Part shown: piece after piece, positions 29,993 to 50,062 of the stretch | Layout of the letters: each line of letters starts with the position of its first letter | Position numbering within the stretch: the stretch's first letter is position 1 | DNA from: Escherichia phage JEP6 | Sequence record: MT764206.1 | DNA: 64,000 nucleotides | Strand: one strand, 5' to 3' | Notes under the pieces: generated by a model | Database searches by the model: none | Seen by the model: the letters and a program-made list of their open reading frames with translations, nothing else | What the model was told of the DNA's origin: nothing | Position numbers and translations under genes: made by a program

Positions 29993-30961
29993 TTATTTCA
30001 GAAGAGTAACCTCAGCGATTTCTTCCCAACCGTTTTTGTCGGTCATAATGAAGTCAGCAAGATAAAGAGCAGTACGCAGTGAAACATTACGTAAACGGTT
30101 AACATTGACTTTCATCCATGATAATGCTTTATAAGTTTCTTCATCAGAAAGACCGCGCTTTTGCATCATGTCAGTTGAAAGAATAACATCTTCAACCCTG
30201 ACCATAATTTCTTCATTAGTGTGAACACCCAAATCCAAATAAACCGAGCGGGACACTAATGCTTGTAAATGTGGAGCAAGTTTAGTACCACGGTCTAATT
30301 CGCGGTCAATGTCAACGTTTGTGATAAAAACAATCGTTCCTTTAAATTCAAACTCACGCTCAATGCCTTTTTCTTCTAAGTAAGAAGACGCAGTGCTCCA
30401 GCAGACTTTACGGGTCTCTCCAGTGTCCAGAGCGGCTTTTAGAAGATTAAGAATGTCCATATCAGAGAAAACATCCACATCATCAATCAAAAGGACAGAA
30501 TTCTCTTCACGATTATTCCAAAGCTGCTCATAAAGACCAATACCAGAGATTTTACCATTAATGCTTTTATATTCAATGTATCCAATATCATTTGCTTTAT
30601 TTAAAGCTTTATCTAAAGAATACGTTTTACCAATACCTGCTGCGCCAGAGATAATTAATGAACGAATATTTCCGTTAATAATACCATTCGTCATCATTCC
30701 CATAACATTAAATCTTTTATTAATGCGGGTTTTCATATCTTCATATGATTCTTTAACTTCTTCAACTTTTACACCATCATATGAAATATCTGATTTGTAA
30801 ACCCAAACACCGCGACGTTTACCGTCAATTTCAACAAAAACTTTACCATCTCCTTGTGCATCTACCGGAGCATTATCTGGGAACCATTCTCCTAAGAGCT
30901 CAAAAGTTCCAGAGATTTCTTTACCGAAGTAGATACCCTTATTGATAGTTACAGTTTTCAT
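29993..30961 (-). CDS. P-loop NTPase (AAA-like)
   Basis: Walker A GAAGIGKT, Walker B LLIDDVD; ATG at 30961 with GGAG SD. Confidence 0.6.
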   Translation of the reverse strand: MKTVTINKGIYFGKEISGTFELLGEWFPDNAPVDAQGDGKVFVEIDGKRRGVWVYKSDISYDGVKVEEVKESYEDMKTRINKRFNVMGMMTNGIINGNIRSLIISGAAGIGKTYSLDKALNKANDIGYIEYKSINGKISGIGLYEQLWNNREENSVLLIDDVDVFSDMDILNLLKAALDTGETRKVCWSTASSYLEEKGIEREFEFKGTIVFITNVDIDRELDRGTKLAPHLQALVSRSVYLDLGVHTNEEIMVRVEDVILSTDMMQKRGLSDEETYKALSWMKVNVNRLRNVSLRTALYLADFIMTDKNGWEEIAEVTLLK

Positions 30962-30993
30962 TTTATTCTCCAATTTCACATTTGTTTTGATAG

Positions 30994-31025
30994 GGTAATA
31001 GTATCACACTACTACCCTACTGTAA
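30994..31025 (-). promoter_or_regulatory. Early promoter cassette copy
   Basis: taatagtatca ... gtaaac. Confidence 0.55.
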
Positions 31026-31030
31026 ACAAT

Positions 31031-31294
31031 TTATTTTAATGTTTGCCAAATTTTTACTGCTTCGCGACGAGATACTTCTACAGCTCCAAGTTCTACGGCT
31101 TTTTGGCGTCGGCGAGCATGTAAGTCATAATGTTTAATGCGTTTATCTTGAAACCAAGAACGTTTCATTCCTATTGCTTCTGCCATTTTATGAAGCTCTT
31201 CAATATCTCCATCAGTGAACATATGACAATTTTTAGTTGGATGACCGCGAAGTTTCCATCCATGATTCATTAAAACATCTACGTAAACTGTCAT
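31031..31294 (-). CDS. Hypothetical basic protein
   Basis: 87 aa ORF. Confidence 0.5.
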   Translation of the reverse strand: MTVYVDVLMNHGWKLRGHPTKNCHMFTDGDIEELHKMAEAIGMKRSWFQDKRIKHYDLHARRRQKAVELGAVEVSRREAVKIWQTLK

Positions 31295-31475
31295 TGATTC
31301 TTCTCCAAATAAGTTTCGATAATTTTCTGAGCGAGATAAACTGCATTATCTTCAGTTGCATCTTCTAAGAAACTTTCAAAACACTCTGAAATTTCTTCTG
31401 TGTCAATCAACTTTTTTACTTCAATTGGTGTAATTTTCATTTTGTTTTCCGTTTAAGTGTTTGTTTTGATAGTTG

Positions 31476-31506
31476 TATAGTACCATAAAGCTTTATGCTT
31501 GTAAAC
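31476..31506 (-). promoter_or_regulatory. Early promoter cassette copy
   Basis: tatagtacca ... gtaaaccactttgtgaaaaaa. Confidence 0.55.
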
Positions 31507-31538
31507 CACTTTGTGAAAAAATTTTTGAAATAAAAAAA

Positions 31539-31556
31539 GGGAGCCCGAAGGCTCCC
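31539..31556 (-). terminator. C(UUCG)G hairpin
   Basis: gggagcccgaaggctccc directly after the upstream gene's stop. Confidence 0.55.
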
Positions 31557-31558
31557 TA

Positions 31559-32572
31559 TCATTTATAATAACTTCGGTGGTTTTCAAGATAGACCTTCTC
31601 AAGGAAGTCATCCCAGAAACTCATGTCTACTGTTTTAGGCATACCGTTCTTAGAAGCTTCAGTAGATGCTGCTTCTACTTGATCGACCACATCTTCCAAA
31701 AACTCTTGAACCGTTTTAAATGGATGTTTACCCAACTTCACGTCGAGAATAAATGGAGCATCTTGGAGTGGATAAACCAAGTCACCAGTTTTGTAAATTT
31801 CCAATAGTTGGAGTCCACCACGACAAGCATGACTCAGAGCTTTCCAGTCAATGCCTTCATTGGCTTCGGCCTTACGAGCGCGTTCACCGTATTCAGCATC
31901 TAATTTGTTCAGTGACTGCTTAAGCTCAATAAGAGAAAGCGTTGTCTGATATTTACGACCCAACACTGTGTAAAACGTTTGTGGGCCTGTTTTCTCATGA
32001 TTATGGAACACCCATTCACAGAATTCGTTTTCTGGAAGACGATGCTTAATATCTTCAACTTTAGTGCGGCGCTGCTTAATAGAACCATCTTCTTGGTAAT
32101 CAACCCATTGCTCGGGGATTTGATTAACTACTTTCAATACATCACGTAATGCAGCCAAACGAGAACCCTTAACACCGTATTTAGAAGCTTGTTTGCGGAC
32201 ATATCCTAAATAGGATTTCATGTTAGTCGTATAAAAACGAGAACGGTTGTCTTGAATAAACTTCCACACATCAGGCAAATCAGATTTAACCACTAGTTCA
32301 GGTGGAGTGTGAAGCATATCCAATGCTACAGTTTCACCATCTGCTGCTAATTTAAAGAAATACTTAAGACTATACAATTCGTGGTCAATATCATCTTTAG
32401 TGTTTTTAGATGATGTGTTGTTGGTGTTTTTACTCATGTGCTCTTTGACATTTCCGATAAGAATATCACGAGCAGGAGGAACAAAGATTTCTTTAAAATC
32501 TACATCAGATTCTGGGGTAGAAGTTCCATAAAGATGACTACCAAAATAACTTTTCATTACTGTTTTCATCAT
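31559..32572 (-). CDS. Nucleotidyltransferase-fold protein (Pol-beta-like NTase motif)
   Basis: YFGSHLYGTSTPESDVDF = hG[GS]x(9-13)DxD signature; 337 aa. Confidence 0.5.
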   Translation of the reverse strand: MMKTVMKSYFGSHLYGTSTPESDVDFKEIFVPPARDILIGNVKEHMSKNTNNTSSKNTKDDIDHELYSLKYFFKLAADGETVALDMLHTPPELVVKSDLPDVWKFIQDNRSRFYTTNMKSYLGYVRKQASKYGVKGSRLAALRDVLKVVNQIPEQWVDYQEDGSIKQRRTKVEDIKHRLPENEFCEWVFHNHEKTGPQTFYTVLGRKYQTTLSLIELKQSLNKLDAEYGERARKAEANEGIDWKALSHACRGGLQLLEIYKTGDLVYPLQDAPFILDVKLGKHPFKTVQEFLEDVVDQVEAASTEASKNGMPKTVDMSFWDDFLEKVYLENHRSYYK

Positions 32573-33030
32573 TCAGCCTTATATTCAATAACAGGACACA
32601 CTTTAGCTTTACGAGCTTTTAAAAATTCAACGATAACCGATTTCTTGGGTTGAATAGGAGGTAAACCTTTATACGCCCTATCAATATTTTCTACGTGTAA
32701 AGCATAATCCTTTTTCCATTTATAATCTTTATATTTTTCACGCAAATGTGCAGGAATAACAAATGAACCAATAATAAGTAAAACAACCAAAAGCGCAAGT
32801 ATAAATGCTGATGGAATAAGAGTCCATAAACTACCAAAAATAAGCCAACGCTGTAGGCTTTCTGCACAGATGATAGTTAGACCTACGAGTATAGTACATC
32901 CGAAAAAAGAAACGAAAAATGTAGGAATGGCAATAGACCAAAAATATGCGCATAGTGTCTTAGGTCGTTGCCATTCATCGTTAAACAATTTGAATAATTT
33001 ATAGTGCCAAGAGTTTTCATTAATAATCAT
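32569..33030 (-). CDS. Membrane protein
   Basis: 153 aa with three predicted TM segments. Confidence 0.5.
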   Translation of the reverse strand: MIINENSWHYKLFKLFNDEWQRPKTLCAYFWSIAIPTFFVSFFGCTILVGLTIICAESLQRWLIFGSLWTLIPSAFILALLVVLLIIGSFVIPAHLREKYKDYKWKKDYALHVENIDRAYKGLPPIQPKKSVIVEFLKARKAKVCPVIEYKAE

Positions 33031-49453: not shown

Positions 49454-50062
49454 TTATTTATTACGTGAAAAAGACTGTTCTATCAATTCTGGACACTTTC
49501 GTTCTATCCATTTTCTAGCTTTTTGTGGGCTTATACCTATTATTTTAGCAGCTTTACTAACCCATCCAAATTTAGAATAATCGATTTTAACTAATTCTTC
49601 GTAAATTTCATCAGTTAAAATCTTTTCATTAATATTTACCAGTAAATGATATAATTTGTTATCATTAGCAATTTTAATGAATCTTTTATAGTTTCCGCCT
49701 TTACTTAAACCTAATGAAGTAATTGCAGATGATATAGTAGCCGAATTTAATAATGCGTTTAAAATTTCTTCATCACTAACATTATAACGCTTTTTATTAT
49801 TTTTAATATTTTTACCAGCAAAAGTATCAGTTTGCGAGTGACAGTTTGGACATAATAATCTTAAATTTGATTTAAGATGATTTTTGTTATTTCCATCAAT
49901 ATGGTCTAATTGCAGAACAATATGCTTATTTTGCCATTTTGAAATTTTACAAATTGCACACTCATATGGAAAAATATTTTCTTTTATTATTTTGTCTTTC
50001 AGCTTTCCTGTGCTAAAATTTGGGTGTTTTCCTTCAAAAATTTCAGCTAATTTAGTATCCAT
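49454..50062 (-). CDS. HNH homing endonuclease
   Basis: LQLDHIDGNNKNHLKSNLRLLCPNCH HNH motif; ATG at 50062. Confidence 0.75.
   Translation of the reverse strand: MDTKLAEIFEGKHPNFSTGKLKDKIIKENIFPYECAICKISKWQNKHIVLQLDHIDGNNKNHLKSNLRLLCPNCHSQTDTFAGKNIKNNKKRYNVSDEEILNALLNSATISSAITSLGLSKGGNYKRFIKIANDNKLYHLLVNINEKILTDEIYEELVKIDYSKFGWVSKAAKIIGISPQKARKWIERKCPELIEQSFSRNK

Follow-up and report, generated by a model that had tools for sequence, protein, structure and literature searches.

PMC7824862 cites Burroughs & Aravind (2016) for the RlaP family and reports that in jumbo phages the distribution of its members mirrors that of RNA ligases. Bacterial RlaPs act on RNA 3'-OH ends ahead of ligation (10.64898/2025.12.29.696909). 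The Pseudomonas enzymes add one or two NMPs to an RNA 3'-OH in a Mn2+-dependent manner, favor a nicked-tRNA mimic and partly restore aminoacylation of a tRNA that lacks one nucleotide, and the same study assigns T4 NrdC.11 to cluster 5 of the family (Carruthers, Fatma & Huang 2025 preprint, 10.64898/2025.12.29.696909). In the PfRlaP crystal structure, a C-terminal helical domain and the nucleotidyltransferase (NTase) domain together form an RNA-binding cleft. On the T4 map nrdC.11 is followed directly by nrdC.10; domain assignments have been in print since 2006 (PMC1524935), and nrdC.11 can be deleted from T4 on laboratory hosts (PMC9825161). Among the known systems closest to the ATPase described below are MoxR-type AAA+ ATPases (NorQ, CbbQ) and NtrC-type AAA+ domains. 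A mechanism based on repeated promoter-early stem-loop (PeSL) elements, which are mobile regulatory cassettes in T4-type phages, has also been published (PMC2839356, PMC4122927).

We analyzed a stretch of 64,000 nucleotides from Escherichia phage JEP6 (MT764206.1), referred to here as the window. The phage is a Tequatrovirus with 99.3% identity to Salmonella phage SG1, and many other Tequatroviruses are 97% identical to the window. All genes of the locus, both promoters and the hairpin lie on the minus strand (Table 1). The locus probably corresponds to the nrdC.11-nrdC.10 part of the variable early 'nrdC-mobD' region of T4 and, with the same confidence, is a set of independent accessory genes rather than one system. 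Most of what it contains is ordinary and has been described before. An earlier note on this DNA had located the ORFs, their motifs, two early-promoter copies and a UUCG hairpin, and all of these were found where it had placed them. It had counted three genes; there are four, because a 49-aa acidic ORF between the first promoter (P1) and the 87-aa gene had been overlooked. Upstream of the NTase gene, an ORF for a 153-aa predicted membrane protein occupies the position of the mobD homing endonuclease in T4. The plus-strand ORFs of the region are all at most 79 aa long and run antisense to conserved genes.

Table 1. Features of the nrdC.11-nrdC.10 locus, in coordinates of the window.
Feature	Position	Strand	Evidence
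153-aa predicted membrane protein	32569..33030	-	phrog_944 'membrane protein', E = 2.5e-49
nrdC.11 ortholog, 337-aa NTase	31559..32572	-	ORF, Pfam RlaP, phrog_388
Intrinsic terminator hairpin	31538..31557	-	terminator scan and RNA fold
Early promoter P1, T4-type	31477..31506	-	GTTTAC-N18-TACTAT with upstream TG
49-aa acidic ORF, first gene of the inserted module	31291..31440	-	phrog_6888
87-aa basic protein of family DUF4031 (PF13223), downstream gene of the inserted module	31031..31294	-	Pfam
Early promoter P2, T4-type, second cassette copy directly upstream of nrdC.10	30998..31027	-	
nrdC.10 ortholog, 322-aa AAA+ ATPase	29993..30961	-	ATG at 30961 after GGAG Shine-Dalgarno

The NTase signature GSHLYGTSTPESDVDF occupies residues 11-26 of the 337-aa ORF. 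This protein scored 43.9 bits with the Pfam family RlaP (PF10127), whose gathering score is 23 (E = 3.1e-11), matched the phrog_388 profile 'nucleotidyltransferase' with E = 6.7e-138, and shared 98% identity with T4 nrdC.11 across the 187 residues that could be aligned for comparison. The family comprises 3508 clusters at 50% identity when matches with E up to 0.001 are taken. Among 52 homologues sharing 33-58% identity, every one matched RlaP, which was the sole Pfam family above threshold; G11, S12, D23 and D25 were invariant and D85 was present in at least 90%. The window NTase shares this GS, DxD and third Asp with T4 NrdC.11 and RlaP. The RlaP alignment spans only the N-terminal 135 residues of the protein (profile positions 23-142 of 249), and in the C-terminal half R231, K244, H248 and R251 were invariant within the subfamily. 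Sequence searches of the PDB with the three proteins and with a profile of the 52 NTase sequences returned no meaningful match. Judged by sequence, these results show that NrdC.11 is an RlaP-family Pol-beta-type nucleotidyltransferase with intact catalytic residues. The Pol-beta-type assignment made previously is upheld by an RlaP match above the gathering score, and the motif residues on which it relied are conserved in the 52 homologues, so that the loss of conservation which the earlier note had named as refuting does not occur. Its function had been treated as open, although the RlaP assignment of T4 NrdC.11 was already contained in the 2025 preprint.

From the biochemistry of bacterial RlaPs we infer that the likely role of NrdC.11 is nucleotide addition at RNA 3' ends, probably in tRNA repair. 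In the scheme we propose, a tRNA cleaved by a host RloC-type anticodon nuclease would also lose a nucleotide to trimming by this nuclease; NrdC.11 would then extend the tRNA 5' fragment at its 3'-OH by one or two NMPs, after which the phage PseT kinase/phosphatase and Rnl1 ligase could reseal a functional tRNA. The characterized enzymes differ from NrdC.11 in two respects. PfRlaP and PaRlaP belong to cluster 1a, whereas NrdC.11 belongs to cluster 5, and they are encoded inside RtcB-RtcA operons, whereas the window NTase has no ligase nearby. Within 8 kb of the NTase gene, no Rnl1- or PseT-like match was present in any T4-like locus; SG1 encodes PseT and RnlA about 87 kb from its NTase. Among the NrdC.11-like viral loci, the 31 most distant ones included five with an Rnl1- or PseT-like gene no more than 8 kb away, and at two of these five the PseT-like, Rnl1-like and NTase matches followed one another in that order within ~3 kb. 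Three other distant loci contained a CCA-adding-like gene, identified by eye.

Such contexts also bear on a different function, in which the NTase would make or destroy a nucleotide second messenger, as an anti-CBASS or anti-Thoeris factor or a cGAS-like synthase, instead of acting on RNA ends. A Pol-beta NTase fold with its catalytic carboxylates intact would suit such an enzyme, and phage enzymes acting on immune nucleotide signals are known. We nevertheless consider this reading highly improbable, given that RlaP was the only Pfam family above threshold, that no PADLOC defense or CD-NTase model was matched at E up to 0.1, and that the gene contexts observed for the subfamily were those of Rnl1/PseT and CCA-adding genes. 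Furthermore, the characterized RlaPs label RNA and not protein or DNA, and the products described for them are RNAs one or two nucleotides longer. Of the options that the earlier note had listed for the NTase, RNA repair is the one favored, both by RlaP membership and by published work, whereas a maker or breaker of nucleotide signals is not supported and found no counterpart among the PADLOC models. That T4 can do without nrdC.11 is consistent with an accessory counter-defense role, but any other dispensable role would account for it just as well. For repair of RloC-type tRNA damage in T4-type phages, a question already raised in the literature, NrdC.11 is the natural candidate, and the window contributes no new gene to this question. 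What our analysis adds is that the catalytic residues are conserved in the phage RlaP subfamily and that some of its distant members adjoin Rnl1/PseT-type genes.

The 322-aa protein encoded downstream is 99% identical to T4 NrdC.10 and shows no difference in kind from it. Its Walker A motif (GAAGIGKT) lies at residues 106-113 and its Walker B motif (LLIDDVD) at residues 157-163. In an alignment of 21 sequences with 55-89% identity, G108, G110, K111, T112, D159 and D160 were invariant, as were N214 (FITN), R237 (VSRS) and R290 and R295 (both in LRNVSLRTAL), which from their positions would provide sensor 1, the arginine finger (box VII) and sensor 2. In the structure model five parallel strands lead into a helical lid, an AAA+ fold, and the protein also has an N-terminal beta-rich domain of ~60 residues; the predicted fold appears closest to MoxR-type AAA+ proteins. 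This domain layout is common to the phrog_1250 ATPases, including homologues from Acinetobacter, Aeromonas, Vibrio and jumbo phages. A homology search returned 758 proteins, of which those with a named source were almost all from phages, and 482 phage records carried NrdC.10 at 99% identity or more. NrdC.10 is a phage-specific AAA+ ATPase with a complete motif set and fold, in agreement with the earlier call of a P-loop NTPase. Its pre-sensor-1 hairpin (CWSTASS) is conserved, and we propose that NrdC.10 is probably an oligomeric ATP-driven remodeler that would engage its target through the N-terminal beta domain and this hairpin. A literature search on nrdC.10 found no functional study. Unbiased clustering had returned conserved neighbors of the ATPase gene that were rejected as antisense shadow ORFs inside the gene itself. 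The exception, a gene of the QueE-like radical-SAM type, lay close to remote AAA+ relatives with 26-31% identity and was judged unrelated.

One functional system might comprise NrdC.11 and NrdC.10, either alone or together with the DUF4031 pair; in it the ATPase could, for instance, deliver or release damaged RNA for the NTase, an arrangement that would explain why the genes are neighbors. Among close relatives the neighborhood is indeed stable. The NTase gene lies immediately upstream of the ATPase gene at all 11 ATPase-centered loci with at least 66% ATPase identity and at 28 of the 35 NTase-centered loci with at least 59% NTase identity, Acinetobacter-type T4-likes included. However, this adjacency tracks phylogeny: it is kept at 3 of the 12 loci with 50-59% NTase identity, at none of the 31 below 50% and at none of the 34 ATPase-centered loci with 58% ATPase identity or less. 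Linkage is lost in Aeromonas phages, in KVP40-like vibriophages and at all 31 distant loci. In Aeromonas phage 25, no nrdC.10 is annotated in the ~7.6 kb downstream of nrdC.11, the side on which T4 carries it, or in the ~5 kb upstream, and in one KVP40-like vibriophage the ATPase gene is found between nrdAB and topoisomerase II. At seven enterobacterial T4-like loci an NTase gene is present with no ATPase gene within 8 kb, and elsewhere the two genes are 115 to 2290 bp apart, with unrelated inserts between them. In addition, a terminator and separate promoters lie between NTase and ATPase, and distant phages show no conserved neighbor of the ATPase gene. We therefore consider a single system very unlikely and prefer to treat these as independent accessory genes; the ATPase and DUF4031 genes are not to be assumed part of the NTase pathway.

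To describe the transcription of the locus, we scanned the window for the early-promoter pattern GTTTAC-N18-TACTAT, allowing one mismatch, and compared the outcome with 100 shuffles. The pattern occurred 12 times in the window, on the minus strand every time, against a mean of 0.42 matches in shuffled sequence, and none of the 100 shuffles reached 12. Two TTTACA-17-TACTAT sites, both with an upstream TG, lie at 31505-31477 (P1) and 31026-30998 (P2). P1 fits the PST/T4 PeSL promoter consensus TTTACW-N17-TAYWAT (PMC4122927) and is identical to the T4 promoter that precedes nrdC.10, and P2 carries a T4 early promoter annotation in phage ASO78A. Directly after the NTase stop codon, and ~30 nt before P1 (GTTTACA-N17-TACTAT), comes a terminator of the form AGGGAGCC-UUCG-GGCUCCCU plus a U-run. 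Its GC-rich stem has 8 bp and its predicted RNA fold a free energy of -17.5 kcal/mol (z = -4.08); T4 has an identical hairpin, and the annotations of phages G9062 and ASO78A list it as a terminator. The only Rfam match over the terminator was L20_leader, at 27.6 bits against a cutoff of 58.7, and we took this sub-threshold hit as a chance match.

The pattern scan found no promoter belonging to the NTase gene itself, the closest upstream match being at 35501-35472, and the NTase ATG overlaps the stop codon of the 153-aa membrane-protein ORF. Because of this overlap and the position of the nearest upstream promoter, the NTase gene appears to be the final gene of a longer, hairpin-ended unit. In the transcription scheme that we propose, this upstream unit would stop at the hairpin, P1 would drive the 49-aa ORF and the DUF4031 gene, and P2 would drive nrdC.10. 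Since the scan also detected no terminator that would separate the 87-aa gene from the ATPase gene, transcripts from P1 probably read through into the latter. The description of the locus as three individually promoted units is consequently wrong as regards the NTase gene, which lacks its own promoter. Strong expression right after infection, also claimed for all three genes, would be expected solely from the promoter type.

The 49-aa ORF, the DUF4031 gene and the second promoter constitute a 479-bp module that is missing from T4. In T4 the intergenic region consists of the window's terminator and P1 joined to the 5'UTR downstream of P2. The T4 junction lies inside the P1/P2 repeat, whose two direct copies of 52 nt are 73% identical and spaced 479 bp apart. 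These junctions, in T4 and in the window, suggest a mobile module that was gained or lost via recombination between repeated early promoter/terminator cassettes (PeSLs). As in described PeSLs, the hairpin in the window is followed by an early promoter that fits TTTACW-N17-TAYWAT, and the copies flank a small module of ORFs of unknown function that is variably present among relatives in a hyperplastic region. Unlike in described PeSLs, only the upstream copy has a stem-loop, P2 being a promoter without a hairpin. At 78 NTase-centered viral loci, DUF4031 lay between NTase and ATPase in four, downstream of the ATPase in another four and was absent from 70. In Klebsiella-type loci the module is downstream of the ATPase gene and the 49-aa ORF, at 44-45% identity, accompanies DUF4031, a position that fits PeSL promoter-cassette shuffling. 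The three-gene unit that the earlier note had implied does not survive these comparisons, with T4 lacking the 87-aa gene and Klebsiella-type relatives carrying the module elsewhere.

The 87-aa protein is basic, as had been noted (pI 9.8), and matched DUF4031 (PF13223) with 76.7 bits (cutoff 25.6, E = 1.6e-21). It retains the residues that are invariant in the family, D6, H24 and H55-Y56-D57, and this Asp/His/His-Tyr-Asp constellation suggests a small enzyme. The 49-aa protein (phrog_6888, E = 5.5e-31) is acidic, with a pI of 4.2, and the stop codon of its ORF overlaps the DUF4031 start as ATGA. No usable PADLOC or NCBIfam match was obtained for the proteins of the locus, and a literature search on DUF4031 found no functional study, the sole mention that it returned being in a phage genome description.

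With overlapping genes, opposite charges and a promoter of their own, the two proteins could form a toxin-antitoxin-like or inhibitor-enzyme pair, a self-contained cassette for counter-defense or host takeover that would have ended up between nrdC.11 and nrdC.10 by chance. The joint move of the pair to another position in Klebsiella-type phages is consistent with this possibility, as are the invariant Asp/His/Tyr residues of DUF4031 and its recurrence across unrelated phages and prophages, where it lies in early regions. Outside T4-like phages, however, DUF4031 has no conserved small upstream partner and its neighbors vary with context, its structural matches are weak and point to no function, and neither PADLOC nor NCBIfam recognizes the pair. 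We regard such a pair as unlikely; it is compatible with independent accessory genes, the reading that we favor, and does not exclude it. A more elaborate version appears distinctly improbable: in it, the two genes would be a promoter-equipped, PeSL-mobile counter-defense cassette, with DUF4031 as a hitherto unrecognized small enzyme working through D6, H24 and H55-Y56-D57 and the 49-aa protein as its partner or regulator, and their landing beside the RlaP NTase might point to a common role in dealing with damaged RNA. Both the very highly conserved NrdC.10 and DUF4031, which is widespread in phage early regions, are reasonable targets for screening.

Around these genes, a 3.6-kb stretch matches Salmonella phage SG1 at 99.3% identity and hundreds of Tequatrovirus (T4-like) genomes at about 97%. 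Set against the T4 reference, it corresponds to the nrdC.11-nrdC.10-nrdC.9 portion of the variable early region that separates tk/rI from nrdC, and every gene here is encoded on the minus strand. The earlier note described three adjacent genes, for a P-loop ATPase, a small basic protein and a nucleotidyltransferase (NTase). This observation is mostly correct: the three open reading frames are present with their motifs, a 49-aa ORF was overlooked, which brings the count to four genes, and the components are already known as T4 NrdC.11 (RlaP family), T4 NrdC.10 (AAA+), DUF4031 and the promoter-early stem-loop (PeSL) cassettes of T4-type phages. The remaining interest lies in experimental tests already proposed in the literature.

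Features of the nrdC.11-nrdC.10 region and early-promoter matches, in window coordinates; the last row names loci with a QueE-like gene
Feature	Coordinates	Strand	Details
NTase, 337 aa	32572-31559	minus	GSHLYGTSTPESDVDF at residues 11-26
DUF4031 protein, 87 aa	31294-31031	minus	basic, pI 9.8
ATPase, 322 aa	30961-29993	minus	ATG start preceded by GGAG; GAAGIGKT and LLIDDVD
49-aa ORF	31440-31291	minus	acidic, pI 4.2; phrog_6888; stop overlaps start of 87-aa gene
Promoter P1	31505-31477	minus	TTTACA-17-TACTAT with upstream TG
Promoter P2	31026-30998	minus	TTTACA-17-TACTAT with upstream TG
UUCG hairpin and U-tract	31557-31538	minus	3' of NTase stop; -17.5 kcal/mol, z = -4.1
Membrane protein (predicted), 153 aa	32569-33030	minus	phrog_944; stop overlaps NTase start as ATGA
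Early-promoter pattern starts	3338, 17391, 29556, 30998, 31477, 35472, 41968, 42362, 46398, 46736, 51059, 51425	minus
QueE-like neighbour loci	L003 8570-9445; L016 12576-13460; L037, L040, L045, L046

In T4, the mobD HNH homing-endonuclease gene overlaps the start of nrdC.11, whereas JEP6 has the 153-aa predicted membrane protein there, a further presence/absence difference within the variable region. A sizeable fraction of GenBank and UniRef entries give NrdC.10, NrdC.11 and nearby nrdC.x proteins the propagated misnomer 'thioredoxin', apparently derived from the gene-name prefix nrdC, and one NrdC.11 ortholog (P0005) is labeled 'putative HNH homing endonuclease'.

Both early-promoter copies previously described were recovered by pattern scan and agree with the published PeSL promoter consensus, TTTACW-N17-TAYWAT (PMC4122927); the record of phage ASO78A annotates the two sites as T4 early promoters. 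Allowing one mismatch, the window contains 12 copies of GTTTAC-N18-TACTAT, every one on the minus strand, against an average of 0.42 in shuffles. Some copies form near-identical pairs, such as 3338/46736 and 41968/42362, and these pairs could mark other shuffled modules. The UUCG hairpin following the NTase gene was also found, complete with its U-tract. A sub-threshold Rfam L20_leader match spanning the NTase gene end and this hairpin (31525-31686, minus strand; E = 0.017) was taken as chance, at 27.6 bits where the gathering score is 58.7. Scanning the window revealed no promoter belonging to the NTase gene itself, the nearest upstream early-promoter match being at 35501-35472, and no terminator separating the 87-aa gene from the ATPase gene. 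The proposal of three separately promoted, co-acting early units is only partly right: the NTase gene lacks its own promoter, and linkage of the genes is not supported.

Adjacency of NTase and ATPase genes depended on NTase identity: it was seen in 3/3 loci at 95% or more, 6/9 at 75-95%, 19/23 at 59-75%, 3/12 at 50-59% and 0/31 below 50%. Centering on the ATPase instead, the genes were adjacent in all 11 loci with at least 66% ATPase identity and in none of 34 at 58% or less. The gap between them ranges from 115 to 2290 bp, with differing inserts. In Aeromonas phage 25, nrdC.11 occupies the syntenic site and adjoins NAD-salvage genes, with nrdC.10 not nearby, and in a KVP40-like vibriophage the ATPase gene sits between nrdAB and topoisomerase II. 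Loss of adjacency with divergence, the variable gap and the separation in distant phages argue that, at the level of genome comparison, adjacency is best interpreted as synteny that a single lineage has inherited rather than as an operon-like functional link.

Unlike JEP6, T4 has neither the DUF4031 gene nor the 49-aa ORF. In its 114-bp nrdC.11-nrdC.10 spacer, the same terminator and P1 are joined to the 5'UTR that follows P2 in JEP6; thus, the window carries a 479-bp module, comprising the 49-aa ORF, the DUF4031 gene and the second promoter and bounded by a 52-nt promoter repeat. Among 78 NTase-centered viral loci, the ORF pair lies between NTase and ATPase in 4, lies downstream of the ATPase in 4 and is absent from 70, and phage records contain DUF4031 in 335 cases versus 1517 for the NTase and 1312 for the ATPase. 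Such varied position and presence is the pattern described for modular shuffling mediated by PeSLs (PMC2839356, PMC4122927).

The 87-aa protein is a clear member of the Pfam family DUF4031 (PF13223), whose invariant residues are D6, H24, Q49, H55, Y56 and D57. Its structural model is confident (pLDDT 94), and structural matches to it were weak, with no Z above 6.2, and uninformative. DUF4031 recurs in early regions of unrelated phages and prophages, its neighbors changing from case to case, and no conserved partner was found in the contexts examined outside T4-like phages. In Klebsiella-type phages, the acidic 49-aa ORF and the overlapping basic DUF4031 gene move together, a layout reminiscent of an inhibitor/enzyme or antitoxin/toxin pair.

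The NTase matches Pfam RlaP (PF10127) at 43.9 bits, above the gathering score of 23, as well as phrog_388, and a search of 1.84 billion representative proteins returned 3508 relatives. In an alignment of 52 relatives (33-58% identity), all of which match RlaP, G11, S12, D23 and D25 are invariant and D85 nearly so; several C-terminal residues (R231, K244, H248 and R251) are invariant as well. The earlier note named loss of the motif in homologues as refuting evidence, and the motif is kept across the 52 relatives. T4 can dispense with the gene on laboratory hosts (PMC9825161), as expected of a conditional counter-defense gene. In OL964745.1 ('Escherichia phage T4', 159,752 bp), most of nrdC.11 is deleted and only the last 39 residues are left (49712-49828), in line with the viability reported for genome-reduced T4 carrying nrdC.11-mobD.3 deletions.

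A preprint by Carruthers, Fatma and Huang assigns T4 NrdC.11 to RlaP sequence cluster 5 and reports that, with Mn2+, two RlaPs from Pseudomonas extend RNA 3'-OH ends by one or two NMPs, favor the broken end of a nicked-tRNA mimic and partially return aminoacylation to a tRNA missing one anticodon-loop nucleotide (10.64898/2025.12.29.696909). The authors propose RlaP as an antidote to nucleotide-excising nucleases such as RloC, and discuss that the RNA ligase T4 Rnl1 requires a 3'-OH and a 5'-phosphate, the end chemistry of the RlaP product (10.64898/2025.12.29.696909). In jumbo phages, RlaP occurrence mirrors that of RNA ligases (PMC7824862). Across the 78 NTase-centered viral loci, T4-like genomes showed no Rnl1- or PseT-like match near the NTase; among the 31 most distant loci (<50% identity), 5 have an Rnl1-like gene, a PseT-like gene or both within 8 kb, and two of these 5 show the order PseT-like, Rnl1-like, NTase within about 3 kb. 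In SG1, the closest genome, PseT and RnlA are encoded elsewhere. By analogy with the Pseudomonas enzymes, NrdC.11 would most likely restore nucleotides at trimmed tRNA ends before PseT (kinase/phosphatase) and Rnl1 seal them.

Other neighbors recur in distant phages. Three KVP40-like loci (L103, L111 and L113; L111 2862-3863) have, some 5 kb upstream of the RlaP gene, a 333-aa ORF that looks by eye like a CCA-adding/poly(A)-polymerase-type enzyme, which would be a second tRNA-end enzyme nearby. NAD-salvage genes (nadV; NMN adenylyltransferase/Nudix) flank the RlaP gene in Aeromonas-type and some other distant phages (Aeromonas phage 25, L056, 3523-9793), and a NadV-like gene about 2.4 kb downstream is common to six distant loci (L103-L105, L107, L109 and L115).

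The ATPase is 99% identical to T4 NrdC.10, whose match to an AAA ATPase motif was noted already in 2006 (PMC1524935). It is very highly conserved, with 482 phage records sharing 99% or more protein identity; homology searching found 758 proteins, the source-named ones almost all bearing phage names, and structural matches among viral proteins widen the family to include Roseobacter phage RDJL Phi 1 and uncultured phages. Walker A, Walker B, the sensor-1 Asn N214, R237 in a VSRS motif and the lid arginines R290 and R295 are invariant. In the AlphaFold model (pLDDT 88), about 60 N-terminal residues form a beta-rich domain, followed by an AAA+ core of five strands and a helical lid; an invariant CWSTASS segment sits on a strand-helix-strand insert before sensor 1. 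The T4 annotation starts NrdC.10 four codons farther upstream, at a TTG, for a protein of 325 aa (13321 in the T4 locus L002, NC_000866 coordinate 55320), and the ORF listing for the window offers a GTG at 30979; the ATG with its well-spaced GGAG is a more plausible start than the TTG. In six loci representing at least two lineages, a QueE-like radical-SAM gene lies within 2-3 kb of NrdC.10-like or remoter AAA+ genes, and in the remote ones the AAA+ domain is inside an ORF of about 500 aa. This context may represent a deazaguanine-modification neighborhood not tied to NrdC.10.
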